Shown piece after piece: positions 21,716 to 44,760 of a stretch of 56,837 nt of DNA; position 1 is the first letter of the stretch, and each line of letters opens with the position of its first letter. The translations under genes and the position numbers were made by a program. Source of the DNA: Patescibacteria group bacterium (GTDB taxonomy: Bacteria; Bacillota; Negativicutes; Sporomusales; Sporomusaceae). Under the pieces are notes generated by a model. The model searched no databases, was not told where the DNA came from, and was given only the letters and a program-made list of their open reading frames with translations. The stretch is taken from assembly GCA_035560935.1 (NCBI GenBank), contig DATMYQ010000069.1, forward strand, positions 1 to 56,837, written 5' to 3'.

Positions 21716-21851
21716 CCGGTAACGGGAAACGAAAAGGCCAGATTCGGCAAGCGCCGGCTGGCCTTTTCCGTCCGTCAGGGGTACAATGGATATAAATGCA
21801 GTGAGGTTTGGCGTCCGTCACGGTGTTGCGGACCGCGGGCAGGGAGGACGT

Positions 21852-23426: not shown

Positions 23427-24112
23427 GGCAAAAAACAATATTGATAGCCGATGACGATCCGCAAATCCGGGAACTGCTGAATTTGTATTTCAGTAAGGAA
23501 GATTTTGCCGTGATCGAAGCGGCGGATGGCAAAGAGGCGCTGGAAAAAGCGGGGCAGGCCCAGTTGGTGATTCTGGATATTATGATGCCGGTGATGGATG
23601 GTTTGGAAGTGTGTCGCGAATTGCGTCGGACCTCGCAGGTTCCCGTTATTATGCTGACGGCCCGGATGGAGGATGAAGACCGGATTCTCGGGCTGGAACT
23701 GGGGGCCGACGATTACATGGGCAAACCTTTTAATCCCCGGGAACTGGTGGCCCGGGTCAAGGCGGTGCTGCGGCGGACAACGGAAGGTGCGCCAGCCGGC
23801 GGGGAAGTGTTGCGGTTGCCGGAGCTGGTGATTGACATGGCCGGCTATACCGTGACCGCGTTTGGGCAGGAAGTGCTGCTCACTTCGCGGGAAATTGAAC
23901 TGTTCTACCACCTGGCCTCGCATCCGGGCCGGGTATACACACGGGAACAACTGCTGGAATCGGTTTGGGGTTATGATTATTGCGGCGACACCGGTACGGT
24001 GGATACCCATATCAAACGTTTGCGGCAAAAAATCAGCGCCGGCGGCGATGGCGCCTGGAGTATCAAGACCGTCTGGGGAGTGGGTTATAAATTTGAATTA
24101 AAGAAACCATGA
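23423..24112 (+). CDS. OmpR/PhoB-family response regulator
   Basis: REC domain 'ILIADDDPQIREL...LVILDIMMPVMDG' plus a winged-helix C-terminus '...TVWGVGYKF'. ATGA overlap with the kinase. Confidence 0.9.
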   Translation: MRQKTILIADDDPQIRELLNLYFSKEDFAVIEAADGKEALEKAGQAQLVILDIMMPVMDGLEVCRELRRTSQVPVIMLTARMEDEDRILGLELGADDYMGKPFNPRELVARVKAVLRRTTEGAPAGGEVLRLPELVIDMAGYTVTAFGQEVLLTSREIELFYHLASHPGRVYTREQLLESVWGYDYCGDTGTVDTHIKRLRQKISAGGDGAWSIKTVWGVGYKFELKKP

Positions 24113-24215
24113 TTCCGCCAGGCGGTATTTTCGGTTATAATAAAAATAAGCGGCGGCGGACCTTGTTGGTGATCGCCTGCGGCAACTATTCATAAAACCA
24201 TAGGGGAGGCAATTC

Positions 24216-24467
24216 ATGACAACCTATACCACACAAGGCGTTTGTGCCAAAGAAATCAATTTTGACGTTCAGAACGGCCGGCTGAAAAACGTCCGTTTCC
24301 ACGGGGGCTGCCCGGGCAATCTGCAGGCCATCAGTATTTTATTGGAGGATATGCCGGTGGGCGATGTCATCGGCAAGTTTCGCGGCAACATTTGTCAAAA
24401 CGGAACGTCTTGTACCGACCAACTGGCCCGGGCGCTGGAAAAATATCAAAACAATACCAGCGCGTAA
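24216..24467 (+). CDS. TSCPD-domain small protein (TIGR03905-like)
   Basis: 'GVCAKEINFDVQNGRLKNVRFHGGCPGNLQAIS...CQNGTSCTDQLARALE' fits the four-Cys TSCPD pattern. Confidence 0.75.
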   Translation: MTTYTTQGVCAKEINFDVQNGRLKNVRFHGGCPGNLQAISILLEDMPVGDVIGKFRGNICQNGTSCTDQLARALEKYQNNTSA

Positions 24468-24510
24468 AGGAGCCGTGGGCAACATCTCGGCAATAGGGGA
24501 GGGATGAACG

Positions 24511-25581
24511 ATGCGAGCGAGAAAGACAGTGGCAGGATTACTGGCGGCGGGTCTGATGCTGACGGCACCAATGCCGGCGCTGGCCATGGGTGACGTGGAA
24601 AAGACCTTACTGGGCGGACTGATTTATATGACCGTGGCAAAAAGCTATCTGAATGAACAGCACCTGAACGGTCAGGCGGAGACGCTGGCAGAATCCCAAA
24701 AAGCCACCGGCGTTTCCCATGATCCGGCTGCCAATCAGCTGCTGGAGCGGATTTCATCCCGGTTGACGCCGGCAGTGGGGGCGCCGAAGGTGCCCTTTGT
24801 TTTTTATGTCAATCCCCGCAAAGATTTTAATGCATCCTGCGGTTTGAGTAACGTGGTTACCGTCAACATCGGCACCTTCGACGCCATGAACTGGAACGAA
24901 GACGAGTCGGCGATGGTGGTGGCGCACGAAATGGCTCACGGGATGGGCAACCACGTGATGAAAAACTATAATAAGACGCTGGGACTGAATTTACTGTACG
25001 CGCTGTACGCGTCGAAAAACCGCAACGAACTGTCCTGGCTGATGGGACTGTCGGCCACCCGGATGATCACGGCCAAGGCGTATGTTTTACCGGATGAATG
25101 GGAAGCAGATAATAACGGCTACGGCTATTTCGTCGCCGCCGGCTATAATCCCGGCGCACCGGCGGCCTCTTTCATCCGGGTGAAGGCAAAGTACGGCGAT
25201 GCCGGTCGCAACTTTCTCGGCGAGTTGATTCAACCCAATGACCACCCGACCAACAGCCAGCGCATCGAAAATTTCAGTAAAAAGATGACCGAATACAGTG
25301 GCGGCCGGGTCAACGTCGCCGGCGCCGCGGTACGGATCAAAGGCCAGGATTTTTTGACGGCGCAGGCCGGTGACGGGCAACTTCCGGACGAACGGGCTTA
25401 TTTAATCGCCGGTCAGCTGTCACGTTACTTTCATGACCGCCCCGGCGGGAGCGGCAATGCCTGGGTGAATGAAGCCGGCCAGGTGATGATTGAAGACTAT
25501 CCGGTACTGACGCCGGCGTCCGGCGAACCGGCCGCCGGGGAACTGGCGGAGCGCTTGCAGGAATTAATACGGCGTCCGTAG
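24511..25581 (+). CDS. secreted M48-family zinc metallopeptidase
   Basis: Signal peptide '...LMLTAPMPALA'. 'VVAHEMAHGMGNH' HExxH motif in an M48-like context, with a downstream 'EWEADNNG'. Confidence 0.75.
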   Translation: MRARKTVAGLLAAGLMLTAPMPALAMGDVEKTLLGGLIYMTVAKSYLNEQHLNGQAETLAESQKATGVSHDPAANQLLERISSRLTPAVGAPKVPFVFYVNPRKDFNASCGLSNVVTVNIGTFDAMNWNEDESAMVVAHEMAHGMGNHVMKNYNKTLGLNLLYALYASKNRNELSWLMGLSATRMITAKAYVLPDEWEADNNGYGYFVAAGYNPGAPAASFIRVKAKYGDAGRNFLGELIQPNDHPTNSQRIENFSKKMTEYSGGRVNVAGAAVRIKGQDFLTAQAGDGQLPDERAYLIAGQLSRYFHDRPGGSGNAWVNEAGQVMIEDYPVLTPASGEPAAGELAERLQELIRRP

Positions 25582-25757: not shown

Positions 25758-27659
25758 TTGCGCATCGTATTTATATCACCTTACCGGGATTTGTCCCGGT
25801 TGGGGCAAACTATTGCCAAAGAATTGAACATTGACCTGGAAACCTACGAAGGCTCCATGGAACAGGCGGTCACGATCATCAGTAATTTAAAAGGTCCGAA
25901 AGTGGACGCGTTCATCAGCCGGCGGGGAACGGCGGCTTTTATCAGCGCTCACACCGAAGCACCGGTCGTCATGCTCGACACCGGGCCGATGGATATCCTG
26001 GCCAGTTGCCTGGAAGCACGTCATGTGTCCCGCAATATCGTAGTGACTTCCTATGAGCCGGTGGGGAGCTTGGAACTGCTGGAAGCGGCACTGGACGTCT
26101 CCCTTACGAATATTACGGTCAGCAGTCTGCAGGATCTGAAAAAAAAGATCAGCGACATGGGTTTCGACGGTGATTATTGCGTTGTCGGAGGCTGGCCGTC
26201 CGTTTCCTTTGCCCGGGAAGCCGGCCGGGAGGGGATCATTTTGCGGACAAGCCCGGAAAGCGTTCGGGAGGCACTGATCCGGGCCCGTGACATTGCAAAG
26301 CTGCGTCGGGAAGAAAAGGCAAAGGCCTTCCGCCTAAAGGCCATTATGGAATCCGTCTATGACGGAATTTTGGCGGTGGATGAAAATGGCCGGGTGGAAG
26401 TGTTTAACCGTTCAGCGGAGAAAATATTGGGATTCTCGGCGGAGACTGTTGTCGGCAAAGATGCAAACGTAGTCATCCGAGGTTCACGAATGGACCAGGT
26501 GCTCCGGACAATGCAGCCGGAAATTGGTGAAATCCAGGTGATTGGCGATGTAAAAGTACTGACAAACCGTATTCCTGTGCTGGATGGCGATGCGGTGATC
26601 GGTGCGGTGGCGACTTTTCAGGACATGGATGGCGTGGTGCTGGCGGAACGTGCTGTTCGAAAAGAATTAACGGGAGGGCAGTTTCGCGCCAAATTTTTGC
26701 TGGACGACATCGTCAGTGTGTCGCCGGTAATGCAGGAGAGGAAAAGTTTGGCGGAAAGCTTTGCTTCTTCAGAACTGACCGTCCTGATTTATGGTCCGTC
26801 GGGAACCGGCAAAGAACTGTTTGCTCAGGGCATTCACAACGCCAGCCGGCGCGCGTCCCAACCGTTTGTCGCGGTGAATTGCGGCGCCTTGCCGCCGGCG
26901 CTGCTGGAGAGCGAACTGTTCGGTTACGAAGAAGGGGCCTTTACCGGCGCCCGGCGCAAAGGAAAGCATGGTCTGTTTGAATTGGCTCATGGGGGTACGA
27001 TTTTTCTCGATGAGGTGGACAGCCTGCCGCTGGAGCTGCAGGGGCGCCTGCTGCGGGTGCTGCAGGAACGGGAAGTATTGCGGGTTGGCGGCGAATCGAT
27101 TATTGCGGTGGATATCCGGGTCATTTCCGCCACCAATACGCCACCCCGGCAATTACTGAAAGAAAATAGGCTTAGGGCGGATTTGTTTTATCGGTTGAAC
27201 GTGCTGTACATGGAATTGCCACCGTTGGCTGAACGTCTGGAAGATATTCCGGTTTTATGCCGGGCGTTTCTGCCGGAAGGCTTCCTTGACGCGGCGGAAT
27301 GGTTCCAGGATATTCTACCGTTGCTGGAGCGCTACTCCTGGCCGGGAAATGTGCGGGAACTCTACAACTTTGCCCAGCGGATGCTGTTTTATCGCCGTCA
27401 GTACCGGCGGGAAGATGTGCGAACCTTGCTGCAGGTGATAGCACCGAGTATTCTGGAAGAACTTCATGCGCCCCTTTCCCGTCCGGGCAATTTGCGCGGG
27501 GAGCTGGCTTTCGAAGAAATGGAACGGATCACGAACACGATAAAAACCGCTGGCAGCGTAAAAAAAGCGGCTCAATGCCTGGGAATCAGCGAATCTACTT
27601 TGTGGCGTAAAATACGAAAACACCGTGAAGTCCAGCAGGACGTTTTGCTTCCGAAATGA
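25758..27659 (+). CDS. sigma-54-dependent transcriptional activator (PrpR_N - PAS - AAA+ - Fis HTH)
   Basis: TTG start after AGGAGGA. PrpR-type N-terminal domain. Walker A 'GPSGTGKE', 'EGAFTGA' (GAFTGA loop), and a C-terminal HTH 'AAQCLGISESTLWRKI'. Confidence 0.9.
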   Translation: MRIVFISPYRDLSRLGQTIAKELNIDLETYEGSMEQAVTIISNLKGPKVDAFISRRGTAAFISAHTEAPVVMLDTGPMDILASCLEARHVSRNIVVTSYEPVGSLELLEAALDVSLTNITVSSLQDLKKKISDMGFDGDYCVVGGWPSVSFAREAGREGIILRTSPESVREALIRARDIAKLRREEKAKAFRLKAIMESVYDGILAVDENGRVEVFNRSAEKILGFSAETVVGKDANVVIRGSRMDQVLRTMQPEIGEIQVIGDVKVLTNRIPVLDGDAVIGAVATFQDMDGVVLAERAVRKELTGGQFRAKFLLDDIVSVSPVMQERKSLAESFASSELTVLIYGPSGTGKELFAQGIHNASRRASQPFVAVNCGALPPALLESELFGYEEGAFTGARRKGKHGLFELAHGGTIFLDEVDSLPLELQGRLLRVLQEREVLRVGGESIIAVDIRVISATNTPPRQLLKENRLRADLFYRLNVLYMELPPLAERLEDIPVLCRAFLPEGFLDAAEWFQDILPLLERYSWPGNVRELYNFAQRMLFYRRQYRREDVRTLLQVIAPSILEELHAPLSRPGNLRGELAFEEMERITNTIKTAGSVKKAAQCLGISESTLWRKIRKHREVQQDVLLPK

Positions 27660-27662
27660 GAG

Positions 27663-27719
27663 AAAATCCTGTCAATGACTGACAGAATCACTGTCAAAAT
27701 TGACAGGATTTCGTTTTTT
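27663..27719 (+). terminator. terminator hairpin of the activator gene that contains the enhancer palindromes
   Basis: Outer stem AAAATCCTGTCA ... TGACAGGATTT followed by cgTTTTTT. Confidence 0.6.
27669..27706. promoter_or_regulatory. paired palindromic enhancer (UAS) sites, CTGTCA-N4/5-TGACAG
   Basis: CTGTCAATGACTGACAG (27669-27685) and CTGTCAAAATTGACAG (27691-27706). Their centres are about 21 bp apart and lie about 130-160 bp upstream of the -24/-12 promoter. Confidence 0.7.
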
Positions 27720-27835
27720 AAAAGAAAAAAGCAAGAAAAAAACGCCGATCATTTATTTTGCTGATGAGGCGAAACCCTTGATATCACTGGCCGAAGTCGG
27801 ATCGACGCACTGCACTGTATAAAAACATGTATGAT

Positions 27836-27852
27836 TGGCACGAAAGATGCAT
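27836..27852 (+). promoter_or_regulatory. sigma-54 (-24/-12) promoter
   Basis: TGGCACgaaagaTGCAt, with GG and GC separated by exactly 10 nt, about 85 nt upstream of the CDS. Confidence 0.8.
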
Positions 27853-27936
27853 GATATTATTTTTTAGAAGCGTGCTGTTGCCGAAAGGTGCTGTTGTTGG
27901 TACAGCCGGTGAAAATAAGGCGAGTGAGGTAAAAAA

Positions 27937-29253
27937 ATGGTTGCCATGCAGTTGGGAAAAACGGATTTTTTGAGAATTTTACGGGAAGAAGTCAAGCCGG
28001 CAACCGGTTGTACCGAACCGGCAGCGGTCGCTTTTGTTGCGGCGAAGGCTGCCGCACTGGCGGAGGGAACCATTCGGGAAATCGAAGTGACGGTCAGCAA
28101 AAATATCTATAAGAATGCATTTGCGGTAACAATACCGGGTACGAATCTTTGCGGGGTACAAATGTCGGCGGCCATTGGCGCGCGAATCAGGCAGCCGGAA
28201 AAAGGGCTGGAAATTTTTGATGGTGTGGATCCGGCGATTGTCCAGGCGGCGATGGCTTTAGTCAGGGAAAAGAGAGTACAGGTCATTATCGAGGATCAAA
28301 ACCAGTTTCTGATTCGGGTTTGTATTGCCACCGAGCAGGAAACCACCGTGGCGGAGGTGCAGAAATCGCACACCAACATTACCCGGCTGGAACGGGACGG
28401 TCAGGTGCTGTTTCAGGCGGAAGTGGAAAATACGGGCAGCATTGCTGAGCTGCCGGTAGATTTGAAAGAGTGCAGACTGGAAGACTTTTTACAGGTCGTT
28501 GCGCTGCTGCAGGCGGATGAAATTTCTTTCATGTATGATGGTATTGAGATGAACCGGAAAATTGCCGACATTGGGATGGCAAGCATTGCCGGTCTGGATG
28601 TGGGCAAGAATTATAAAATTCTGATGGACAAGGGTATTTTGCAAAACGATATCGTCAATCGAACGAAGATGATGATTGCGGCCGCCTGTGATGCCCGGAT
28701 GGGGGGTATAAAAGTCCCGGTCATGAGTACTACCGGCAGTGGCAATCAAGGAATTGTGGCGATACTGACAGTGGCTATGGTGGCGCAATCCATGCAAACG
28801 GACCGGGTCACGACCTGCCGGGCCGTCGCTCTCAGCCATCTTGTAGCGGCGTATGTGAAGCAGAATATGGGTAAACTGATGCCCATCTGCGGTTGTGCAA
28901 TTGCCGCCGGCATTGGGGCGACCGCGGCGATCACTTGGCTGCTTGGCGGTACGCAGACGCAAATCGAAGGTGCTATCAAAAATATTGTGGGAAATCTTAT
29001 GGGGATGATTTGTGATGGAGCGAAAGGCGGTTGTTCGCTTAAACTGGCGACATCCGCCGGCGAGGCGATTACGGCGGCTTATCTGGCGATGGAAGGGAGC
29101 ATGGTCTCCGACGTGGAAGGAGTGGTCGCCTCGTCTCTTTCCGATATGGTCAGTAATATGCTGCAGGTATGCAACAGCGGTATGACCGGTGTGGACAGCG
29201 CCTTGCTGGAAATCATGAAAGAGAAAAGAATCCACGAGGTTGTACCGGCCTAA
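27937..29253 (+). CDS. UPF0597 / L-cysteine desulfidase family protein (YhaM/CyuA/CdsB-like)
   Basis: N-terminal signature 'ILREEVKPATGCTEPAAVAFVAAKA', plus conserved Cys-containing motifs 'ICGCAIAAG' and 'ICDGAKGGC'. Confidence 0.8.
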   Translation: MVAMQLGKTDFLRILREEVKPATGCTEPAAVAFVAAKAAALAEGTIREIEVTVSKNIYKNAFAVTIPGTNLCGVQMSAAIGARIRQPEKGLEIFDGVDPAIVQAAMALVREKRVQVIIEDQNQFLIRVCIATEQETTVAEVQKSHTNITRLERDGQVLFQAEVENTGSIAELPVDLKECRLEDFLQVVALLQADEISFMYDGIEMNRKIADIGMASIAGLDVGKNYKILMDKGILQNDIVNRTKMMIAAACDARMGGIKVPVMSTTGSGNQGIVAILTVAMVAQSMQTDRVTTCRAVALSHLVAAYVKQNMGKLMPICGCAIAAGIGATAAITWLLGGTQTQIEGAIKNIVGNLMGMICDGAKGGCSLKLATSAGEAITAAYLAMEGSMVSDVEGVVASSLSDMVSNMLQVCNSGMTGVDSALLEIMKEKRIHEVVPA

Positions 29254-29329
29254 CATGGCAACGAGCCAGGCTGAGCTGCCGTGGCCGTTACTTTCTGCGA
29301 AGTTTGGCGGCCTTGTAAACAAAAGAACC

Positions 29330-29366
29330 CTGTCAATGTTGACAGAAACACTATCAAAAGTGAGAG
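29330..29366. promoter_or_regulatory. second pair of enhancer sites of the same motif
   Basis: CTGTCAATGTTGACAG (29330-29345) and a degenerate CTATCAAAAGTGAGAG (29351-29366). Their centres are 21 bp apart and lie about 150-180 bp upstream of the second -24/-12 promoter. Confidence 0.6.
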
Positions 29367-29383
29367 TGTTTCTGTCTTTTTTT
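29343..29383 (+). terminator. intrinsic terminator after the desulfidase-family gene
   Basis: Stem CAGAAACACT/AGTGTTTCTG followed by TCTTTTTTT. It overlaps the enhancer sites. Confidence 0.7.
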
Positions 29384-29513
29384 ATACCAGAGCGGAAACA
29401 GAGACGTGAGGAGCAGGATATTTTTATCAACTCTTCCGTGCCCTGAGAAAAGGGGGGTGGATCCATATAAGGATGGGTTTGAGTGGTATGTTTTCTTTTC
29501 GCCAAGTGTCGTT

Positions 29514-29530
29514 TGGCACGATACGTGCGT
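29514..29530 (+). promoter_or_regulatory. sigma-54 (-24/-12) promoter
   Basis: TGGCACgatacgTGCgt, with GG-N10-GC spacing, about 55 nt upstream of the GTG start at 29583. Confidence 0.8.
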
Positions 29531-29582
29531 ATGAATATTTTGAAATCATACTACTATTCTGATTGGCGGAGGGAGATACACG

Positions 29583-30590
29583 GTGAACAAGACAGAACGA
29601 ATTCAGGCAGCAATTAAAGGAAATGAGGTCGACTCATTGCCCTATGGGTTTTGGACACATTTACCGGGCCTCGATTTAGATCCCGTAAAACTGGCGGACG
29701 CAACGTATGAGTTTTATAATAAGTATGACATTGACTTTGTCAAAACCATGAACAACGGAATGTATCCTGTGGAAAGCTGGGGCTGTGAGGCGGATTTTTC
29801 CGGAATATTGAACGGTGGTGTGGCCAAATTGGTCAGCACGCCCATCAACTGCCTGGAAGACTGGAAGAAGATCCAGCCGGTCGATATTGGAGCGGGCAGC
29901 CACGCCCGGGAACTGACCTCGCTGGGATTGCTGCTGAAAAAGATAAATCAGGAAGCGCCGATACTCTTTACTGTGTTCAGCCCGCTGACGATCGCCGACA
30001 AGCTGTCAAACAACAAAGTAATTGAGCACATCCGGCAAGGTGGCGGCGAATTGATCCATCAGGCCCTGGCAGCCATCACTCAGACTACGGCGAAATTGGC
30101 GGCGCGTGCCGTGGACATGGGCGCCGCGGGAGTCTTCTTTGCCAGCCAGATGAGTTGCTACGACATTATCCCGGACAGCGTATACGGTGAGTATGGAAAA
30201 AAATATGATGTGGCCGTTTTGGAAGCCGCCGGCGCGGGCTGGTTCAATACGATTCACGCCCACGGCAACAACATTATTTTTCAGCTGCTGCGGGACTATC
30301 CGGTGGACGTGTTCAACTGGCACGCCTGGGAAACTTTGCCCGGCATCGAGGAAGCCCGGGATATGACCGGCAAATGCCTGATGGGTGGCCTGAAACGCGG
30401 CGATATCACCGCCGGCAACAAAAATGAAATCAGTGCGCAAATTTATCATTGCGTCAAGTTGCTGATGAAGAAAAAACACATCCTGACGCCGGGCTGTGTG
30501 ATGCGCTATCCACTGGATGAGGCCATGCTGATGTACGTCAAAGAAACCAAGGACATTGTCGAGAAAACATTAAAAGAAAATGGGGAATGA
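29583..30590 (+). CDS. uroporphyrinogen-decarboxylase (URO-D) fold family protein, MtaA/CmuA-like
   Basis: GTG start after GGAGGGAG. N-terminus 'ERIQAAIKGNEVDSLPYGFW', 'DFVKTMNNG', 'NTIHAHGN' and '...ILTPGCVM' follow the URO-D/MT2 layout. The usual HxCG is HAHG here. Confidence 0.6.
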   Translation: MNKTERIQAAIKGNEVDSLPYGFWTHLPGLDLDPVKLADATYEFYNKYDIDFVKTMNNGMYPVESWGCEADFSGILNGGVAKLVSTPINCLEDWKKIQPVDIGAGSHARELTSLGLLLKKINQEAPILFTVFSPLTIADKLSNNKVIEHIRQGGGELIHQALAAITQTTAKLAARAVDMGAAGVFFASQMSCYDIIPDSVYGEYGKKYDVAVLEAAGAGWFNTIHAHGNNIIFQLLRDYPVDVFNWHAWETLPGIEEARDMTGKCLMGGLKRGDITAGNKNEISAQIYHCVKLLMKKKHILTPGCVMRYPLDEAMLMYVKETKDIVEKTLKENGE

Positions 30591-31780
30591 AAGTGTTGGA
30601 AGCTAGGCACTATATCCAGGAACGCTGCCGGAAACTGCAGCGGTTTATGGAGGAGAAACAGCTTGACGTGGTGATCGTGACCCGACCGGAGAATGTGTAT
30701 TATCTTAGCCGCTTTAACCCTATCCTGAACAGTCACCCCGCGTTTGTGGCCGTGTTTCGCGAAGGGGAAAACTGCCTGCTGGTGCACAGCATCCGCTGTG
30801 ATCACGCAAAAACGGAGAGTGCGGCCGGCAATGTCGAATTGTACGGCAAATGGGGCGATCACGCCAGTCTGGCACTGGAGCCGGTGGACGCGCTGAAAAA
30901 AGTGATTTCTTCCCGTGTCGGGGAAAAAATAAATTGGGCGCTTGAAATGGACTATGTGTCCGTCAGCCTGTACAGCAAACTGTGCAAGACACTGGAAACG
31001 CCGGCTATGGCGGATATTGCCCCGTTCCTGAGCCGTCAAAAGCTGGTGAAGGATGAGCTGGAGGTGGAAAAGATTCGTCGGGCGGCGGCGCTGGCCGATG
31101 AAGGAACCCGGACCACCATTGCGCATCTGCGTAAAGGTCGCAGTGAAGCCGAAGCCTGCACGGAAGGCCAGTATGCTATGCGGCAAATGTGGCACCAACA
31201 TTTCCCGGATGAGGAAGTGGCCGGCTTTGGGTCTTCCGAAGGCGGCGTGCTGGACGCACTGCATTGCTGGTGCCTGACCGGACCCCGAATCGCTTACGGC
31301 TGCGATTGCCCCATTCATTATGTGCCGCAGCCCGGAGAACTGGTTTTACCCATGACTTGGGCAAAAATCAGCGGCTATTACGCCGAGAATGAGAGAACCC
31401 TGTACGTCGTCGAGCTGGATGCGTTTAAGCAGCAGGCGTTTGCCACCGTCTTGGAAGCGAGACGCCAGGTGCTGGATGCGCTGAGGCCCGGTGTGAGCTT
31501 TGATCGCCTGTACGCGGCCGCAGCCTCTGTGTTTGACCAAAACGGGTTTGCGGCGTTAAAACCGGGGCGGGTGGGTCACGGGATCGGTTTGTCGGCTCAT
31601 GAATTTCCTTCGCTGGCCCCGGGCAATGAGATGGTGCTGGAGCCGGGAATGGTTTTTACGGTGGAGCCAGGACTGATGTCACGGCAATGGGGCGGGGTAA
31701 GGATTTCGGATACCGTTCTGGTCACCCGGCAGGGTTACGAACAGATTACCCAATCGGAGAGCGGCATGCTCAGAATATAA
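30587..31780 (+). CDS. M24-family metallopeptidase (Xaa-Pro dipeptidase/creatinase-like)
   Basis: Creatinase/prolidase-type N-domain, then the pita-bread motifs 'GRVGHGIGLSAHEFP', 'VFTVEPG' and 'ISDTVLVT'. ATGA overlap with the upstream gene. Confidence 0.8.
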   Translation: MKVLEARHYIQERCRKLQRFMEEKQLDVVIVTRPENVYYLSRFNPILNSHPAFVAVFREGENCLLVHSIRCDHAKTESAAGNVELYGKWGDHASLALEPVDALKKVISSRVGEKINWALEMDYVSVSLYSKLCKTLETPAMADIAPFLSRQKLVKDELEVEKIRRAAALADEGTRTTIAHLRKGRSEAEACTEGQYAMRQMWHQHFPDEEVAGFGSSEGGVLDALHCWCLTGPRIAYGCDCPIHYVPQPGELVLPMTWAKISGYYAENERTLYVVELDAFKQQAFATVLEARRQVLDALRPGVSFDRLYAAAASVFDQNGFAALKPGRVGHGIGLSAHEFPSLAPGNEMVLEPGMVFTVEPGLMSRQWGGVRISDTVLVTRQGYEQITQSESGMLRI

Positions 31781-31907
31781 ACGCTGAATGGCAGATGGAA
31801 ACTACAGGCGGATGGGGGTTTGGAAAAACTGCAGCAATAGCTTTTGAACAGGATTTACGGCCCAGGGATAATGGATGATTACTGTGAAGGAAAGGACGAG
31901 TTGAAAG

Positions 31908-32354
31908 ATGGTAAATAAGGTAGGACTCAGCGGAGCCATTTTTGTATTGATTGTATCATCAGTTTTTGTATATTCATCGCTTGATCTGCCCTATGCGAGT
32001 GAGATCGGACCGGGGCCGGGTTTTTGGCCAATGTGGCTGTCTGGACTGTTGATTCCGTTATCGCTGGCGTATCTGTATTCTGCCGCTAAAGGAACCGATG
32101 CGGCGGAAAAGGCGCCGGACAAAAAGGCGGGAATGGACATGATCTTTATTTTGGGCAGTATGAGCCTGTATGTTATCTTGCTCCCGTTTCTGGGATTTAA
32201 TCTGAGCAGCATCTTCTTTTTGTTTGCGTTTTTGCGGAAGGGTTACAGCTGGCACAAAAGTTTAGGTATTTCCGTGGCGGTGGCAGTGTCATTATTCTTT
32301 TTATTCACCGAAGGATTTACAACACCGCTGCCGGTGAATACCTGGGGATTTTAA
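31908..32354 (+). CDS. tctB: tripartite tricarboxylate transporter small membrane subunit TctB
   Basis: A 148-aa four-TM protein immediately upstream of TctA. Confidence 0.75.
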   Translation: MVNKVGLSGAIFVLIVSSVFVYSSLDLPYASEIGPGPGFWPMWLSGLLIPLSLAYLYSAAKGTDAAEKAPDKKAGMDMIFILGSMSLYVILLPFLGFNLSSIFFLFAFLRKGYSWHKSLGISVAVAVSLFFLFTEGFTTPLPVNTWGF

Positions 32355-32368
32355 AGGAGTGAGATGAT

Positions 32369-33877
32369 ATGGAAAACTTTGGTTTACTGATGCAGGGATT
32401 TGCCGCGGCCCTGACGCCGATGAACTTTCTCTTTTGTCTGCTTGGCGTAACGGTGGGACAATTTGTCGGCGTACTGCCCGGACTTGGCCCGGTGGCAGGG
32501 ACCGCCATGCTGATTCCGCTGACTTATGGTCTGGACCCCATTCCTTCAATCATTCTGCTGTCGGGGATCTTTTACGGGGCCATGTATGGCGGGACCATTA
32601 CCTCGGTTCTGATCAATGTTCCCGGAGAAGGGGCCTCGGTTATCACCTGCATTGACGGCTATCAAATGGCCAAGCAGGGGCGGGCGGGACATGCGCTGGG
32701 TGTAGCCGCTATCGGTTCCTTTGTCGGCGGTATTGTCGCTGTCCTGAGCCTCACTTTTTTAGGACCGTCGCTGGCAAAATATGCGATGCAATTCGGGCCG
32801 CCGGAATTTTTCAGCCTGATGTTGTTTGGTTTGCTGCTGCTGGTGGGGTTGATAGGAAAATCCATTATTAAAGGGATGATTGCGGCCATCATCGGCATGC
32901 TGCTGGCGCTGGTCGGACAGGACCCCGGCACCGGTGCGGAGCGGTTTTTGTTCGGGCAGCTGGAATTGCTGGGCGGGATCGACTTTGTTGTTTTGGCCAT
33001 TGGCCTTTTCGGCCTGTCGGAAATTTTGTCCAACACGGAAGAAAATATGGAACTGAACCGGCCCGAAAAAATTGGCAGTTTGATACCGCCGCGATCGGAA
33101 TGGAAAGCTTCGCTGATGGCCATCCTCCGGGGGACCGGCATCGGCGGCATCTTGGGGCTGATTCCCGGGACCAGTGCGTCCATCGCTTCATTGATGTCCT
33201 ATTCGCTGGAGAGAAAAGTTTCGAAGAGCCCGGACCGTTTTGGTAAAGGGGCCATTGAAGGAGTGGCGGGACCGGAAACCGCCAATAACTCTTACGCCGG
33301 AGCGGCGTTGATTCCATTGTTTACCCTGGGAATTCCCGATTCGCCGACCATTGCCGTGCTGTTGGGAGCGTTCATCATGCATGGCCTGACTCCGGGGCCG
33401 TTGCTGTATCAAAAAAATCCCGATTTTATCTGGGCGGTTATCGCCAGTATGTTTATCGGTAATTTCCTGCTGTTGGTCATGAACATGCCATTGGCGAAAT
33501 ACTGGGCAAGAATTGCGCTGATTCCGTATAAGTTGTTGTTCCCGATTATCCTTTTGGTTTGTATGGTGGGTGTGTATAGCGTAAACATGAGCCTCTGGGA
33601 TATTGGCCTGACCATTGCGTTTGGTGCCATTGGCTATTGTATGAAAAAATGGAAATTACCCAGTGCGGCGCTGATTTTATCCTTTGTACTGGGTAAGAAA
33701 ATCGAATTTGCCCTGGTCCAGACCCTTGCCGGATCGGAAAACGGTATTCTCGTGTTGTTCCAGCGCCCTGTGTCCGCCACCTTGCTAACTCTGTGCGGAA
33801 TTATTCTGGCGTTTGGACTTTACACCACGATCATGAATAAATACCGGGATTATTTGGCCACTGACGAAACGGCCTAA
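32369..33877 (+). CDS. tctA: tripartite tricarboxylate transporter large membrane subunit TctA
   Basis: A 502-aa polytopic protein. 'GVLPGLGPVAGTAMLIPLTYG...' and 'GLIPGTSASIAS' are typical TctA motifs. Confidence 0.85.
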   Translation: MENFGLLMQGFAAALTPMNFLFCLLGVTVGQFVGVLPGLGPVAGTAMLIPLTYGLDPIPSIILLSGIFYGAMYGGTITSVLINVPGEGASVITCIDGYQMAKQGRAGHALGVAAIGSFVGGIVAVLSLTFLGPSLAKYAMQFGPPEFFSLMLFGLLLLVGLIGKSIIKGMIAAIIGMLLALVGQDPGTGAERFLFGQLELLGGIDFVVLAIGLFGLSEILSNTEENMELNRPEKIGSLIPPRSEWKASLMAILRGTGIGGILGLIPGTSASIASLMSYSLERKVSKSPDRFGKGAIEGVAGPETANNSYAGAALIPLFTLGIPDSPTIAVLLGAFIMHGLTPGPLLYQKNPDFIWAVIASMFIGNFLLLVMNMPLAKYWARIALIPYKLLFPIILLVCMVGVYSVNMSLWDIGLTIAFGAIGYCMKKWKLPSAALILSFVLGKKIEFALVQTLAGSENGILVLFQRPVSATLLTLCGIILAFGLYTTIMNKYRDYLATDETA

Positions 33878-33948
33878 AGGAGGAACCGCAAAAACACAAA
33901 TGGGTTCAGTGAAAATCAGTACAAAGCAAAAATAAGGGGGTTACGAAC

Positions 33949-34956
33949 ATGAAGCGCAAATGGACAGCATGGGTTGTTTCGGCATTACTGGTCGCGGGTG
34001 TCGCACTGGCCGGCTGCGGGCAACAGAAAGCAGCCGGTGACAAAGGAGATGGAGAAAAGGCGGTTGCCGGATACCCCAAAAAACCCATTATGGCGATTGT
34101 GGCCTTTCCGGCTGGTGGGGGTACGGACATTGTTGCCCGGTCGATTTTGAAAACGGCGGAAAAATATACCAAACAGGGCTTTGTGGTTGACAATAAACCC
34201 GGCGCCGGCGGTGCTATCGGTTTTACCGCATTGGCCGGAGCGCCCAAGGATGGTTATACCATTGGCTTACTTAACGCGCCGACGCTGGTACTGGCGCCGA
34301 TTCAACTGGGTGATAAAGTAAAATACAAATTGGACGACTTCGTGCCGATTGCCAATTTTGTGACGGATCCCGGTGTGTTTGTCGTGGCGGCGGATAGTCC
34401 GTTTCAAACGTTGAAGGACTTTATTGATTATGCCAAAGCGAATCCTAATAGTGTGAAACTGGGTTATGGCGGACCGGGAACGTCGGAAGCGCTGGCGCTG
34501 CGGTCGCTGGAACAGACCAATGACCTTAAAATTCGCAAAGTGCCTTACGAGGGTACGGGGCCACAGCTGACTTCCCTGATGGGGAAAAATATCGACATCA
34601 TGATCGCCAACGCGTCGGAAATATATCCGCAATATGAGGCCAAACAAATTCGGGTGCTGTCCATTGGTTCCGAGAAACGGATTGATATGTATCCAGAAGT
34701 ACCGACGTATAAAGAATCCGGCTTTGACTATGTGCAGGTGGCGATGCGGGGACTGGGAGCGCCGAAAGGGATGGATCCCCGACAAATACAGGTACTGGCC
34801 GATGCGATGAAAAAAGCATATGACGACCCGGAATTTAAGAAACACGCCCAGGATTTGCATTTGCCGCTGGACTATATGGGTCCGGATGATTTTAAGAAAG
34901 AACTGCAGCGTCAGGATACTTTCTATCGGGCGGAATTTGCCAAAAGCCCCTGGTGA
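33949..34956 (+). CDS. tctC: TctC/Bug-family substrate-binding lipoprotein
   Basis: Lipobox 'VALAGC'. 'YPKKPIMAIVAFPAGGGTDIVARS...VDNKPGAGG' is the Bug-family signature. Confidence 0.85.
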   Translation: MKRKWTAWVVSALLVAGVALAGCGQQKAAGDKGDGEKAVAGYPKKPIMAIVAFPAGGGTDIVARSILKTAEKYTKQGFVVDNKPGAGGAIGFTALAGAPKDGYTIGLLNAPTLVLAPIQLGDKVKYKLDDFVPIANFVTDPGVFVVAADSPFQTLKDFIDYAKANPNSVKLGYGGPGTSEALALRSLEQTNDLKIRKVPYEGTGPQLTSLMGKNIDIMIANASEIYPQYEAKQIRVLSIGSEKRIDMYPEVPTYKESGFDYVQVAMRGLGAPKGMDPRQIQVLADAMKKAYDDPEFKKHAQDLHLPLDYMGPDDFKKELQRQDTFYRAEFAKSPW

Positions 34957-35026: not shown

Positions 35027-35079
35027 GGGGCTGTGTTGAGAAGGGTAAGAATCCTTCAACACAGCCCCTTTTGATTTTT
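35027..35079 (+). terminator. intrinsic terminator
   Basis: Stem GGGGCTGTGTTGA/TCAACACAGCCCC followed by TTTTGATTTTT. Confidence 0.8.
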
Positions 35080-35247: not shown

Positions 35248-36711
35248 TTGGCCAATGCATTTGAGACCTGGGGGAAGAAATACGGATTATTGCTGGCGAT
35301 ATTGACCGGGGTAGCTGTATGGCTGCTGCCGACGCCGGCGGGCATGACCCTAACCCAGCATAAACTGCTGTCCATTTTTAGCGGCGCTGTGGTGGCCTGG
35401 ATTACCATCGGGATAAATTTTGCCGTCAGTACCTTTGCCATTATTGTACTTTTATATTTCTGGGTGGGGAATCCGGAAGGAAAAATGAATAAAGTCGGGG
35501 AATTGATCCGCAATGCCGATTTCGCGGTGGGCGGCTTTGCGTCTTCGTCTCTGTGGCTGCTGGTGACCGGCTTTGTTATTTCCATTGCCATGACCAAGTC
35601 CGGCGTGGCCCGTAGATTGGCGTTGCACATGATGCGAATTCTGGGGAAAACGCCGGCGGGAGCGATATTTGCCTCGATGCTGGCCAACTTTGTCATTGCA
35701 CCGCTGACTCCCTCCAACACCGCCCGGGCGGCGGCCATGCTGCCGGTTTTGGAAGGAATCGCTGCCGCTTATCGCGCGGAACCGGGAAAAAGCAATTTTG
35801 GCAGGGCGCTGTTTTTAACATCCACCTTTACCACCAACATCACCGGTGCGGCTTTTTTGACCGGTACCATACCCAATCCGGTGGCCGTGGGCATGATCGC
35901 CGCCGCCGCCGGCGCGTCAGTGATGACCACCTGGAGTTATTGGGCGATGGCGGCGCTGCCGACCAATATCATCATTCTGATTGCCGCCGGCTGGCTGACG
36001 CTGAAAATGTATCCGCCGGAAGTCAAAGCCTTGCCGGGCGGTATCGGCTATATCCGGAAAGAACTGGACGCCATGGGGCCGATGAGCCGGCGGGAAATGA
36101 AATCTATCGGTTATTTTGTCCTGGCGCTGGCGTTATGGTCCACCGATGCTCTGCACCATCTGAATTCCACCATGATTGCCTTTCTGGTTTCCCTGCTAAT
36201 TTTTTTACCCCGGGTGGGCGTGTTGGAGTGGAAAGAGACGGAAAAGTCGCTGCCCTGGGAATTATTCGTTTATTTCGGCGGCGTTTTGACGCTGAGCAAT
36301 GCGCTGATGAGCACTAAAGCGTTTGAATGGCTGATCAAAACGACGCTGACCGGACTGGGCCTCGATGGTATGGCCATGATGCCGCTGCTGATCCTGCTGA
36401 TCGGCTTCAGTATCTTTAGTCATGTGATCTGGTCTACGACCACCGCCATGGCTGGGGTGATGATCCCCATTTATATTGGCCTGGCGCAGGCGCTGGGCTT
36501 TAACGTGGTGGGATTTGTGCTGCCGCTGGCCATCATGATGGCGTATGCCCTGTTTTTACCCTTTAACACCATGGGAAATATTATCATGTTCGGCGCCGGT
36601 TATTATACGGTGGCGGAACAGATTCGATCCTCTTTGCTGCTGGGATTGATCGTCTGGATTTTGTGGGTTGTCACTGCCTTTACCTGGTGGAAGGTGATCG
36701 GCCTGCTGTAA
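35248..36711 (+). CDS. DASS/SLC13-family anion (di/tricarboxylate) permease
   Basis: A 487-aa polytopic protein. The general layout and N-terminus '...LPTPAGMTLTQHKLLSIF...' fit DASS/anion-permease families. TTG start. Confidence 0.7.
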   Translation: MANAFETWGKKYGLLLAILTGVAVWLLPTPAGMTLTQHKLLSIFSGAVVAWITIGINFAVSTFAIIVLLYFWVGNPEGKMNKVGELIRNADFAVGGFASSSLWLLVTGFVISIAMTKSGVARRLALHMMRILGKTPAGAIFASMLANFVIAPLTPSNTARAAAMLPVLEGIAAAYRAEPGKSNFGRALFLTSTFTTNITGAAFLTGTIPNPVAVGMIAAAAGASVMTTWSYWAMAALPTNIIILIAAGWLTLKMYPPEVKALPGGIGYIRKELDAMGPMSRREMKSIGYFVLALALWSTDALHHLNSTMIAFLVSLLIFLPRVGVLEWKETEKSLPWELFVYFGGVLTLSNALMSTKAFEWLIKTTLTGLGLDGMAMMPLLILLIGFSIFSHVIWSTTTAMAGVMIPIYIGLAQALGFNVVGFVLPLAIMMAYALFLPFNTMGNIIMFGAGYYTVAEQIRSSLLLGLIVWILWVVTAFTWWKVIGLL

Positions 36712-36748
36712 TCCCGGAATCAATAAACGAAGCGGAGGAGATGGAATC

Positions 36749-38008
36749 ATGTTGCAATTACCGGAAATGTACAGACTGGTGCGGGAGTTTCCCCGGCCCC
36801 GCCTGCAGGATATTGAAACGACGGTGGTTCGGGAGCTGGAACGCCTGCAACTGAGAGAAAAAATAGTGCCGGGGGCCCGTATCGGCATTACCGCCGGCAG
36901 CCGGGGGATACAAAACCTGCCGGAGATACTGCGGCATACGGCAGCGTATATTCGTCAACGGGGCGGTATTCCCTGCCTGTTGGCGGCGATGGGCAGCCAC
37001 GGCGGCGGTACGGCGGCGGGACAGCAGGAAATGCTGGACGGACTGGGGATAACTGCAGCAAGCACCGGCGCGCCGGTTGTCACCTGTGCGGACTGTGAAG
37101 AAATTGGCCGGACCGGGTCCGGATTGCCGGTATACATGGTCAAATCAGCCCGGGAAGTCGATGGGATTCTGGTGGTGAACCGGGTCAAAACCCATACCTC
37201 CTTCAAAGGACTGGTGGAGAGCGGCCTGGTGAAAAAACTGGTGGTCGGACTGGGCGGGCCCAAAGGCGCCCGGCAATTTCACAGTTTCGGCCCGGCAGAG
37301 TTGTCCCGCCTGTTGCTGGAAATGGGTACCGTCATTTTGGAACGTTGCCAGGTTCTGGGCGGTTTGGCCATTCTGGAAAATGCCTACGAAGAGACGGCGG
37401 ATATCCGGGGCGTGACCGCCGCCGGACTGATCGATGAAGAAAGCCGGCTGCTGGAGTACTCCAAGTCGCTGATGCCTTCATTGCCGGTGGAGAATCTCGA
37501 TTTACTGATTATTCAGGAGATGGGTAAAAATTTCAGCGGTACTGGTATCGATACCAACATTGTCGGGCGTTGCCGCATCCAGGGGGTGGCGGAGCCGGAA
37601 AGCCCGGCGATACAGCGAATTGCGGTGCTGGATTTGTCGGAGGAATCTCACGGCAACGCCACCGGCATCGGACTGGCCGATTTTGTGACCCGGCGGCTGG
37701 TGGAGAAAATGGACCGCCATGCCACTTACCTGAATTGCCTGACCAGCACTTTCGTTGTCCGGGCGGCCATCCCGATGTATTTTGACAGCGAGGAAAAACT
37801 GCTGGCCGCGGCATTGTCCAGTCTGGGAGGAATGGCAACGGAAACACTGCGGATTGCCATCATTCCCAATACCCTGTTTTTGGCGGAAAGTTATGTCTCT
37901 GCCGCAGTGGCTGCTCAATTACGGGGCCGGTCGGGCCTGTCCGTGTCTGCGGCGGCGGAAAATATCCGCTTTGACGGGGAGGGAAATATCACGCTGCGCG
38001 TGGAATAA
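36749..38008 (+). CDS. LarA-like (DUF2088) protein, putative nickel-pincer-dependent 2-hydroxyacid racemase/epimerase
   Basis: 'LAAMGSHGG' and 'VKTHTSFKGLVESGLVKKLVVGLGGPKGARQFH' resemble the LarA His/Lys/His region. No larBCE genes are in the window. Confidence 0.45.
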   Translation: MLQLPEMYRLVREFPRPRLQDIETTVVRELERLQLREKIVPGARIGITAGSRGIQNLPEILRHTAAYIRQRGGIPCLLAAMGSHGGGTAAGQQEMLDGLGITAASTGAPVVTCADCEEIGRTGSGLPVYMVKSAREVDGILVVNRVKTHTSFKGLVESGLVKKLVVGLGGPKGARQFHSFGPAELSRLLLEMGTVILERCQVLGGLAILENAYEETADIRGVTAAGLIDEESRLLEYSKSLMPSLPVENLDLLIIQEMGKNFSGTGIDTNIVGRCRIQGVAEPESPAIQRIAVLDLSEESHGNATGIGLADFVTRRLVEKMDRHATYLNCLTSTFVVRAAIPMYFDSEEKLLAAALSSLGGMATETLRIAIIPNTLFLAESYVSAAVAAQLRGRSGLSVSAAAENIRFDGEGNITLRVE

Positions 38009-38017
38009 TGCGGGGAA

Positions 38018-39754: not shown

Positions 39755-40481
39755 TGATGAGGAACTGATCGGAAATGAACTTAAAGACATTCTGACGGGA
39801 CATTGCCGTCAAGCGGAGGTCGTTTTTTGCCGCAGCGGTGTGGCGGCGTTGCGGGAGCTGGAAAGGGAAAATTTTGATCTGGTGTTTTTGGACATTCAGA
39901 TGCCGGGCGTTACCGGCTTGGATGTGGCCCGGATCTGGGCTGAAAAAAATGAGCCGCCGTTGGTGGTTTTTGTCACGGCGTACAGTGAATTTGCGGTGGA
40001 TGCGTTTGCCGTCAACGCCCTGGATTATGTGTTGAAACCGTTCGATGAGGGAGATATTGAACGGGTGCTGACCAAAGCGGCGCGCCGGCTGGCTGCCCGG
40101 CCGGACCCGTGCGCCGGCGAGACCGCAAAAGTGAAAATGAACTGTGTGCACCGAATCACCGTGGAGGGAAAAGACGGGCTGGAAGTGCTGGAAAGTGCCG
40201 GTATTCTGCTTATCCAGGCCAAAAACCGTCTGGTGTATGTTCATGCCGTTAACGGTGAACAATATCTTTCCCGGCTGTCGCTGCAGGAATATGAGACCCG
40301 CCTGGATCCGGCGGTGTTTTATCGTTGCCACCGGAATTTTATTGTCAACGTCGGCAGAATCCAGCGAATGACCGCCTGGTTTAACCGCGGCTACATTCTG
40401 ATGTTAAAAGACGCCCGGGGTGTGCAGATTCCGGTGAGCCGCCATTATGTCAAAGGACTGAAAGAATACATTGATTTTTAA
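39729..40481 (+). CDS. LytTR-family response regulator
   Basis: ATG at 39729 follows GGGAGGAAACCGT and overlaps the kinase end. REC 'MKILIADDEELI...LVFLDIQMPGVTG' plus a LytTR C-terminus '...FYRCHRNFIVN'. Confidence 0.9.
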   Translation: MQMKILIADDEELIGNELKDILTGHCRQAEVVFCRSGVAALRELERENFDLVFLDIQMPGVTGLDVARIWAEKNEPPLVVFVTAYSEFAVDAFAVNALDYVLKPFDEGDIERVLTKAARRLAARPDPCAGETAKVKMNCVHRITVEGKDGLEVLESAGILLIQAKNRLVYVHAVNGEQYLSRLSLQEYETRLDPAVFYRCHRNFIVNVGRIQRMTAWFNRGYILMLKDARGVQIPVSRHYVKGLKEYIDF

Positions 40482-40640
40482 AAAATGATGGGCGTTGCTA
40501 AATTGTGTACTAGGAGGAATTCGGGGCGTGAACTGCGAAATAAGAGGAACACTCTGAAACTAGGGGAACCAAGAACGGCGTTCTTTTCCGGGTAGCGGAA
40601 ACCCACGCCAGAAGTATGTTTCCGGGAAAGAGGCAGATCT

Positions 40641-43123: not shown

Positions 43124-43131
43124 AACCTTTT

Positions 43132-43156
43132 GAACCCTGCCGGGGTTCTTTTTTTT
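43132..43156 (+). terminator. intrinsic terminator
   Basis: Stem GAACCC/GGGTTC followed by TTTTTTTT. Confidence 0.75.
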
Positions 43157-43192
43157 GTCCGCCCGTCCCGGGTTTTGGCGCGCCGGGGGAAA

Positions 43193-43220
43193 GATTTGTG
43201 CGATTGATTCTGATTTGTGC
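43193..43220 (+). repeat. perfect 9-bp direct repeat GATTTGTGC-N10-GATTTGTGC, candidate LytTR operator
   Basis: The repeat ends 21 nt upstream of a TATAAT at 43242-43247, just before the second DASS gene. Confidence 0.5.
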
Positions 43221-43284
43221 AACAACAGGTAAAGGAATGAATATAATCGAAGATAAAGCAAAATAGAATAAAGGAGTGGATGGA

Positions 43285-44688: not shown

Positions 44689-44760
44689 AGACTGGCGGTT
44701 CACACGTCCGAAGGATTGGCGCGCTGGTGGCCGGATTTGATCCCGTTGTCATGAATCGGG

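Follow-up and report, generated by a model that had tools for sequence, protein, structure and literature searches.

A candidate sigma-54 regulon joining a CyuA-family cysteine desulfidase gene to a UroD-like/M24/Tct operon in a Sporomusaceae genome

The window analysed here is positions 1–56,837 of contig DATMYQ010000069.1, 56,837 nucleotides (nt), from a genome that GTDB places in the Sporomusaceae. Our subject is the stretch at 25758–34956, in which the gene of a sigma-54 enhancer-binding activator is followed by a CyuA/CdsB-family cysteine desulfidase gene (cyuA) and by an operon for a UroD-like protein, an M24-family hydrolase and a TctBAC importer. These genes probably form a two-transcript sigma-54 catabolic regulon under the adjacent activator, with cysteine desulfidation as its last step. 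We are considerably confident that a single activator serves the two promoters, here called P1 and P2; that the UroD-like/M24 pair is functionally coupled with cysteine desulfidation is a closer call, and one to which we only lean. The observations behind these readings are of sequence features, of their conservation in relatives, and of gene linkage across species. Sigma-54 control of cysteine desulfidases is already known; the enzyme pair and its wide linkage to CyuA-family genes are undescribed.

Two promoters, paired palindromes and the adjacent activator

A sigma-54 promoter was called where GG at −24 and GC at −12 stood at fixed spacing within TGGCAC-N5-TTGCW, upstream of a gene and co-oriented with it. 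P1 (TGGCACgaaagaTGCA; 27836–27851, + strand) agrees with this consensus at 10 of 11 bases and lies 101 nt before the cyuA start, and P2 (TGGCACgatacgTGCg; 29514–29529, + strand) agrees at 9 of 11 and lies 69 nt before the UroD-like start, both with the canonical GG/GC spacing. The exact pattern TGGCAC-N6-TGC occurs three times in the window versus 0.8 expected, and 3 of 100 shuffled sequences also reach three. The promoter count by itself is weak evidence; what is decisive is position, as P1 and P2 are both intergenic, co-oriented and near start codons. The third exact match (8724–8738, − strand) falls within an Nramp coding region with no palindromes near it and is taken as chance. The position of P2 is kept in three related loci (L001, L089 and L090), at 68–70 nt before the UroD-like start, and the TGGCA…TGC element is invariant across nine aligned cassettes whose flanks diverge. 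The two promoters proposed at 27836 and 29514 in a sequence-only reading of this DNA are borne out in consensus match, position and conservation alike.

Upstream of each promoter lie two copies of a palindrome that may serve as an upstream activator sequence (UAS). Site 1a (CTGTCAatgacTGACAG; 27669–27685) was found by motif search and aligns with site 1 of the eight other cassettes; site 1b (CTGTCAaaatTGACAG; 27691–27706) has its centre 21.5 bp from that of 1a. Before P2, site 2a (CTGTCAatgtTGACAG; 29330–29345), also found by motif search, is followed at a centre-to-centre distance of 21 bp by site 2b (CTATCAaaagTGAGAG; 29351–29366), a degenerate copy. These distances of 21–21.5 bp amount to about two helical turns. 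Relative to the predicted starts, the site centres stand at −185 and −164 for P1 and at −202 and −182 for P2. The same geometry recurs in the six cassettes that were measured, with sites 20–21.5 bp apart and the proximal one at −164 to −190. The earlier reading had described a CTGTCA-N4-TGACAG pair at a similar distance from each promoter; the distance stands, and the motif has to be amended at site 1a, where the spacer is N5, and at the fourth site (29351), which carries two mismatches.

Exact CTGTCA-N3-6-TGACAG occurs three times (at 27669, 27691 and 29330) against an expectation of 0.00, and not once in 100 shuffles. Among the first 90 loci fetched it is present in three, all of them with an orthologue of the activator, and in none of the other 87. 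A metagenome-wide scan for the motif plus a promoter gave 63 hits, with a second site in three, all three of the activator's group; the remaining 60 look like chance matches, and the scan found no new regulon member.

The activator (25758–27659, + strand; 633 amino acids (aa)) was assigned from Pfam domains, motifs and orthologues. It has a PrpR_N sensor domain, a PAS domain, the Sigma54_activat domain (PF00158, 4e-65), AAA_lid and a Fis-type HTH_8 (2e-8), and its sequence contains the Walker A motif GPSGTGKE, the GAFTGA loop and Walker B (IFLDEV). An AAA+ domain with both Walker motifs, GAFTGA and a C-terminal helix-turn-helix (HTH) put it in the NtrC/AAA+ class of bacterial enhancer-binding proteins, and the PrpR_N-PAS-AAA+ architecture claimed from the sequence is confirmed by the Pfam domains, Walker A and GAFTGA. 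The same PrpR_N-(PAS)-AAA+-HTH_8 arrangement is found in PrpR, whose inducer is the tricarboxylate 2-methylcitrate, and in PrdR. The activator is not PrpR, as it scores 375 bits with TIGR02329 against a cutoff of 499 (NCBIfam) and has no prp genes near it. PrdR is the best-scoring Firmicute model, yet the score of 349.5 is below the equivalog cutoff of 795 (NCBIfam) and no prd genes are adjacent, so this identity was rejected too. The TGTCA/TGACA half-sites listed for PrdR resemble those of the window, but are separated by N5–6 rather than N4. Nor is the activator a CdsR orthologue, having another architecture and another UAS: the CdsR-like proteins found beside CyuA genes have 478–479 aa and no PrpR_N, and their identity to the activator, about 41%, covers the AAA+-HTH part only.

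Orthologues with 75–90% identity were found by protein look-ups in L001, L089, L090 and L154. Similar activators at about 50% identity number in the hundreds in the Sporomusaceae and Negativicutes related to them, and one at 65% (L155) adjoins genes for a DASS carrier, a CoA-transferase and an HMGL-like lyase. By its gene context the L155 activator appears to control other genes, and only relatives with at least 75% identity are treated as orthologues here. The genes upstream of the activator are partly syntenic between the window (21786–25581) and L154 (1–2747), both of which have a response regulator and an M48 peptidase gene; a histidine kinase is also present in the window and a small TSCPD gene in L154. 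A similar response regulator lies 3′ of the M24 gene in L001.

Nine cassettes, each of two sites and a promoter, were compared: two each from the window, L001 and L154, and one each from L089, L090 and L115. The five contigs outside the window represent four further genomes; L001, L089, L090 and L154 came from the protein look-ups, and L115 and the L001 overlap from the metagenome DNA pattern scan. In the alignment only the two sites and the −24/−12 element are conserved, and the roughly 120 nt between them are divergent. Outside the window the cassette precedes a UroD-like/M24 operon four times and cyuA twice, the seventh copy standing before a remnant, and the gene order varies. In L089 and L090 it is found between the activator and the UroD-like/M24 pair. 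In L001 one cassette precedes UroD-like/M24, while the other stands just past the terminator of pgi and before the genes of a 432-aa membrane protein and CyuA. On the 2.9-kb contig L115 the whole cassette lies before a cyuA of the E. coli type; this copy (625–960, − strand) is homologous along its full length to the UroD-like operon cassette of L089 and L090. The occurrence of an L089/L090-type cassette, whole, before cyuA and after a CdsR-like gene implies that the cassette may move as a unit. The claim that one activator and two promoters make one regulon survives this phylogenetic footprinting.

The predicted desulfidase and its linkage to the UroD-like gene

P1 stands before a gene for a 438-aa homologue of CyuA/CdsB-family [4Fe-4S] L-cysteine desulfidases (27937–29253, + strand; SDH_alpha, 4e-48), which matches the Methanococcus maripaludis CyuA structure 9FSL with E = 1.6e-32. 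In that enzyme the functional residues are the catalytic Cys23 and Glu25, an anion-site Arg and Asn, and three cluster cysteines (PMC12647591). All of them have counterparts in the window protein: ATGCTEP aligns with ALGCTEV at the catalytic Cys/Glu, DARM and SGNQG align with NTRM and SGNMG at the anion site, and C(G)C, ICDG and GGC align with MCGC, ICDG and VGC at the cluster cysteines. The protein is thus predicted to be a cysteine desulfidase of the CyuA/CdsB type.

The precedent invoked in the sequence-only reading, sigma-54 control of a cysteine desulfidase in Clostridioides difficile, is real (PMC6615313, PMC5767170). There, a dedicated sigma-54 activator, CdsR, is encoded beside the desulfidase gene cdsB, which has a −24/−12 promoter and upstream inverted repeats (PMC6615313, PMC5767170). 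The window has the same promoter class and the same end enzyme, but its activator is a 633-aa PrpR_N-PAS protein, whereas the CdsR-like proteins that were fetched have about 478 aa and lack PrpR_N. The listed CdsR1 site, ATTTGCAaaaaTGCAAAA (ATTTGCA-N4-TGCAAA in the supplement), also differs from CTGTCA-N4-TGACAG, and the window regulon would add a second operon with two uncharacterised enzymes and an importer. The exact CdsR/CdsB layout is seen instead in the closest relatives of the window CyuA (45–50% identity), which lie behind canonical sigma-54 promoters (L085, L086 and L087) and beside CdsR-like activators of about 478 aa (L085 and L086). Palindromes of the form TTCTCA-N4-TGAGAA, reported as one base different per half-site from CTGTCA-N4-TGACAG, stand upstream of these window-type cyuA genes (L085, 2906–7710; L087, 8001–11112; L086, 6262–9287). 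In L085 and L087 the gene is followed by Amidohydro_1 and ATC_hydrolase genes; by analogy, these encode enzymes of the type that would free cysteine from a thiazoline carboxylate.

A second point of comparison is cyuPA of E. coli, which is transcribed with sigma-70 and controlled by the Lrp-type regulator CyuR/DecR. The end step to pyruvate, NH3 and H2S and the pairing with an importer are alike, and in L001 cyuA is co-transcribed with a membrane protein gene. However, the window CyuA has only 34% identity to E. coli CyuA (the L001 protein has 59%), and the L001 membrane protein is not homologous to CyuP. The latter belongs with a polytopic protein of L089: the two, of 432 and 435 aa and 82% identical, lie beside an E. 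coli-type cyuA (L001, 332–1630; L089, 10054–11361), on its upstream side in L001 and its downstream side in L089. Neither has a Pfam or NCBIfam match, and the family is a candidate for a new cysteine-related transporter family co-transcribed with cyuA.

The case for coupling the two transcripts comes from gene linkage across species. The UroD-like protein belongs to a tight family, with 55–62% identity in 80 species and 57–79% in the top 120 database clusters. We took one genome per GTDB species, 80 loci in total, and clustered all open reading frames (ORFs) within 7 kb of the UroD-like gene. The loci come from Oscillospiraceae, Lachnospiraceae, Clostridium symbiosum, Pyramidobacter and other Synergistetes, Fusobacterium, Dialister, Erysipelotrichaceae/Solobacterium, Fusibacter and a spirochaete. 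A CyuA-family gene is a neighbour in 39 of the 80; for the 40 loci that extend 5 kb or more in both directions the number is 25, against a chance expectation that we estimate at about 1%. Other recurrent neighbours are a LysR regulator (53/80), the same M24 subfamily (20/80), TctCBA (16/80), an Opp-type ABC system (15/80), an opine dehydrogenase (12/80), AbgT (10/80) and a C45 hydrolase (9/80). In the commonest layout, TctA-TctB-TctC on the minus strand is followed by UroD-like (+), LysR (−) and CyuA-like (+). It is this LysR protein, and not an activator of the window type, that is the usual regulator across the 80 species; it scores best with the NCBIfam model "selenium metabolism-associated LysR", below the cutoff. 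Sigma-54 promoters also precede the UroD-like gene in L004 and in L030 (the latter from Fusibacter), with other activators. In Pyramidobacter piscolens (L005, 4246–9062) two successive pairs of an M24 variant and an opine dehydrogenase lie upstream of it.

The CyuA proteins beside this one UroD-like family fall into three clades that are mutually about 30% identical: the UroD-linked clade, for which NCBIfam has no model, the E. coli type (as in L001) and the window type. The presence of three clades argues for functional coupling rather than common inheritance of the pair. The single pathway proposed from the sequence is supported by this linkage of the UroD-like gene to CyuA-family, M24 and importer genes over 80 species. 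The sequence-only reading also knew of no characterised pathway with this gene set, and no paper in the literature library that we searched joins these families.

Several findings weigh against the proposed regulon and pathway. No rpoN gene was seen among the scanned ORFs of the window. The cyuA gene of L089 has no recognisable sigma-54 promoter. In L154 (4757–5370; ENA ERZ15185989), whose activator is 90% identical to that of the window, both cassettes are kept and cyuA is reduced to a short 3′ remnant, which leaves the first promoter directed into the second cassette; coverage of the contig is about 1x, and an assembly artefact is possible. On L115 the only activator, after whose gene the cassette stands, is CdsR-like and has another architecture. 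The importer of the module varies, with MFS, Opp or AbgT in place of Tct in relatives, and the UroD-like genes of the Fusobacterium and Dialister loci have no CyuA-family gene nearby. The opine dehydrogenase, C45 and M20 hydrolase neighbours seen elsewhere hint at peptide- or opine-like substrates, which are possibly free of sulfur.

Some of these points make up the strongest rival, in which the regulon is real and its two units are unrelated. The cyuA gene would then have the role it has in E. coli and C. difficile, a general one in detoxifying or utilising cysteine, and the UroD-like/M24/Tct unit would degrade a sulfur-free compound, such as a carboxylated amino-acid derivative or a small peptide of an opine-like, Xaa-Pro-like or amidino kind. 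The dispensable cyuA of L154, the Fusobacterium and Dialister loci, the opine dehydrogenase, hydrolase, Opp and AbgT neighbours, and the stand-alone sigma-54 units formed by the relatives of the window cyuA would all fit. Against this stand the 25 of 40 complete neighbourhoods with a CyuA-family gene, the three clades, which argue for repeated selection of the pairing, and the three genomes in which the cassette before cyuA is that of the UroD operon. We regard unrelated units as unlikely, although this remains the rival to be taken most seriously.

Palindromes within intrinsic terminators

The palindromes of the window are at the same time parts of intrinsic terminators, a feature that the sequence-only reading did not see at either pair. 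Both sites upstream of P1 are contained in the terminator of the activator gene (27664–27720, + strand), a hairpin (27664–27711) followed by a U-tract, with site 1b at its tip. The hairpin has a folding energy of −27.5 kcal/mol (z = −5.7) that no shuffle equals, and the terminator scan flags 27691–27706. The terminator of cyuA (29341–29384, + strand; hairpin at 29341–29376), again with a U-tract, has site 2b at its tip and folds at −20.2 kcal/mol (z = −3.5), which 2 of 200 shuffles equal. A third terminator, in which a hairpin of −33.2 kcal/mol (z = −4.9) is followed by UUUUGAUUUUU, closes the UroD-M24-tctBAC operon (35027–35079, + strand). All nine palindrome regions have a hairpin with a U-tract, and in every one the promoter-proximal site is the hairpin tip. 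Since this site lies within the terminator of the upstream gene, the cyuA and UroD-like units are separate transcripts, each of which needs its own promoter.

These hairpins could mean that the palindromes are only terminators, or members of a repeated terminator family, and that the promoters are served by different activators or other sites, with no shared regulon. All nine regions, with their strong hairpins and U-tracts, make good terminators, and this by itself could account for a hairpin; the terminator scan picks out the palindrome itself, the L001 hairpin ends the housekeeping gene pgi, and the nearest activator in L115 is CdsR-like and not of the PrpR_N type. A terminator, however, needs no fixed sequence, yet the 12 bases of the core do not change here, whereas the outer stems show compensating changes (GAAACA/TGTTTC, AGAAGC/GCTTCT, AATC/GATT). 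The co-variation is what a terminator would require, and the fixed core points to the needs of a protein-binding site. Moreover, a second copy, often not part of a hairpin, is found 20–21.5 bp upstream in every cassette; the motif occurs only with an activator orthologue and always 160–210 bp from a −24/−12 element; and the half-sites resemble those of PrdR, the best Firmicute model for the activator even if below its cutoff. Terminators and nothing else are on these grounds improbable. The palindrome pair is very likely the enhancer of the activator, embedded in terminators, and an enhancer site placed inside an intrinsic terminator would be a compact regulatory design.

The enzymes of the second operon and the pathway they may serve

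The gene set read from the sequence, UroD-like, M24 and TctBAC, was recovered in full by ORF and Pfam scans. The first gene (29583–30590, + strand; 335 aa) encodes a protein with the UroD/MT2 fold (URO-D, 4.5e-21) that alignment and structural model predict to be a zinc enzyme. In an alignment of 24 family members H225, H227 and C305 are invariant and E250 nearly so, giving the pattern H-x-H-x22-E-x54-C, whose spacing resembles that of MetE and MT2 enzymes. The only sequence hit in the PDB is MtaA (4AY7), a methylcobamide:coenzyme M methyltransferase, in which HICG and PGCG, positions that we take to be the MT2 zinc ligands, align with HAHG and PGCV of the window protein. The model is of high confidence (predicted local distance difference test (pLDDT) 94), and its top fold match is again MtaA, with a template modelling (TM) score of 0.84 and 17% identity, ahead of HemE and MetE; these three were all that the PDB sequence and fold searches returned. 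HemE itself was rejected, as an invariant K140 occupies the position of the catalytic Tyr (Y154 in E. coli) and there is no haem-pathway context; the profile alignment with E. coli HemE covers the central third only, and the N-terminal Arg-rich motif was not alignable.

The likeness of the UroD-like protein to MtaA could also mean a corrinoid-dependent MT2-type methyltransferase, which would (de)methylate a thiol (S-methylcysteine) or a methylated amine with a corrinoid protein encoded elsewhere or with free cobamide. The best sequence and fold matches, the aligned zinc-ligand positions filled by H, H and C, the shared H-x-X…E…C spacing and the weak NCBIfam hits to MtaA/CmuA all lend themselves to this. 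However, the score with these models is 45.6 against a cutoff of 235, and the defining H-x-C of the MT2 motif is H-x-H in 24 of 24 members, so that the remark that HAHG stands where MT2 enzymes have HxCG holds for the whole family (H225-A-H227…C305). A rough regular-expression search of 936 ORFs near the gene, in the window and in 84 other loci, turned up no real corrinoid-binding protein, its single match being probably an antisense ORF, and no RamA-like activase was present among the recurrent neighbour families. The gene context, amino-acid or carboxylate catabolism in non-methanogens, also differs from that of MtaA/MtbA. We give little credence to an MT2 methyltransferase here. The lack of a corrinoid partner nearby cuts both ways, since all characterised URO-D members other than HemE use one to our knowledge, and a corrinoid-free enzyme would be a departure.

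The ATG of the M24 gene overlaps the UroD-like stop by 4 nt (ATGA). Its product (30587–31780, + strand; 397 aa) has Creatinase_N and M24 "pita-bread" domains by Pfam and, from the alignment with Pyrococcus furiosus prolidase (1PV9), a non-canonical metal site. At the five ligand positions, which are D, D, H, E and E in the prolidase, it has M256, E267, H331, E360 and S374. In 25 of 25 UroD-linked M24 orthologues the E/H/E/S residues are invariant and the first position is never Asp (Met in 22, Val in 2, Phe in 1). The protein was thus rejected as an Xaa-Pro dipeptidase (prolidase), and it scores 130 with PepQ against a cutoff of 630; with DoeA and DddP, too, it falls far short of the NCBIfam cutoffs. 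Replacement of the di-metal ligands by M/E/H/E/S suggests a hydrolase that, like creatinase or ectoine hydrolase, is not a peptidase. The domain pair, the departure from the five-ligand site and a DoeA match (8e-12) are shared with creatinase/DoeA, but the protein is nearer to archaeal prolidases (1e-33), and M/E/H/E/S is a conserved signature of its own.

The remaining genes encode a complete, co-oriented tripartite tricarboxylate transporter: the small membrane subunit TctB (31908–32354, + strand; PF07331, 1.7e-23), the large membrane subunit TctA (32369–33877, + strand; PF01970, 2e-158) and the solute-binding protein TctC (33949–34956, + strand; PF03401, 1.5e-52). The closest solved Bug/TctC proteins in the PDB (1e-46 to 1e-27) gave no clue to the ligand of TctC.

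From these features we infer, as follows, that the activator binds the sites, what induces it, which substrate is used, and in what order and by what chemistry the UroD-like and M24 proteins act. The PrpR_N-PAS module would sense a small organic acid as inducer. The activator would then bind the tandem 16-bp sites (CTGTCA-N4-TGACAG, centres about 21 bp apart) 160–210 bp upstream of the −24/−12 promoters and drive open-complex formation at P1, for the cyuA-like gene, and at P2, for UroD-like, M24 and tctBAC. Tct would import a carboxylated cysteine derivative, which is our best guess for the substrate. The variant M24 hydrolase, without a di-metal site, may cleave a C–N bond, and the His2-Cys(-Glu) zinc site of the UroD-fold protein, of the MetE/MT2 type, may handle the sulfur-bearing part, with release of free cysteine. 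The CyuA-type [4Fe-4S] desulfidase would finally convert cysteine to pyruvate, ammonia and H2S.

A bolder proposal is that the UroD-fold protein and the variant M24 hydrolase form an unrecognised two-enzyme route that frees cysteine from an imported carboxylated derivative. The UroD-fold protein would then be the first URO-D enzyme that is neither a haem decarboxylase nor corrinoid-dependent, its His2-Cys zinc site acting on a thiol or thioether, and together with CyuA the route would be an unnoticed source of H2S. We put this forward tentatively, as rather doubtful in its entirety. Substrates in keeping with it would be, for example, S-(2-succino)cysteine, S-carboxyalkyl-cysteines and thiazolidine or thiazoline carboxylates; any one of them, or any other compound that might be named, is very improbable when taken singly. 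A methionine synthase-like role, opine metallophore uptake, glutathione breakdown and creatine or ectoine catabolism were set aside, no neighbour gene supporting them.

If the proposed route is true, gut and oral anaerobes (Oscillospiraceae, Clostridium symbiosum, Pyramidobacter, Solobacterium) would widely form H2S by way of this module, with LysR as the controlling protein in most species and, in the lineage of the window, a sigma-54 enhancer embedded in a terminator. The window would extend sigma-54 control of desulfidases to an operon for two enzymes of well-known folds that do not pass the defining tests of any characterised subfamily, and dozens of anaerobes from the gut, the mouth and digesters have these enzymes together with CyuA-family genes. 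To know the substrate would close a gap in our picture of sulfur amino-acid catabolism and of gut H2S formation, and would add chemistry to the URO-D and M24 families. Cultured carriers include Oscillibacter valericigenes, Clostridium symbiosum, Fusibacter ferrireducens and Fusobacterium species.

The window has other features of some interest. An M-box magnesium riboswitch (6260–6433, + strand; Rfam RF00380, 165 bits) precedes an MgtE_N/CBS-domain gene (6660–7961) and an Nramp transporter gene (7958–9226). Beyond the operon, at 35248–48710, there are two paralogous modules that resemble hydroxy-acid utilisation units. The first consists of a DASS carrier, a LarA "group 22" nickel-pincer isomerase (488 bits, above the cutoff) and then a LytS/LytTR pair. 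The second has another LytS/LytTR pair, a second DASS carrier (30% identical) and a GlcD/GlcF-like FAD/Fe-S trio.

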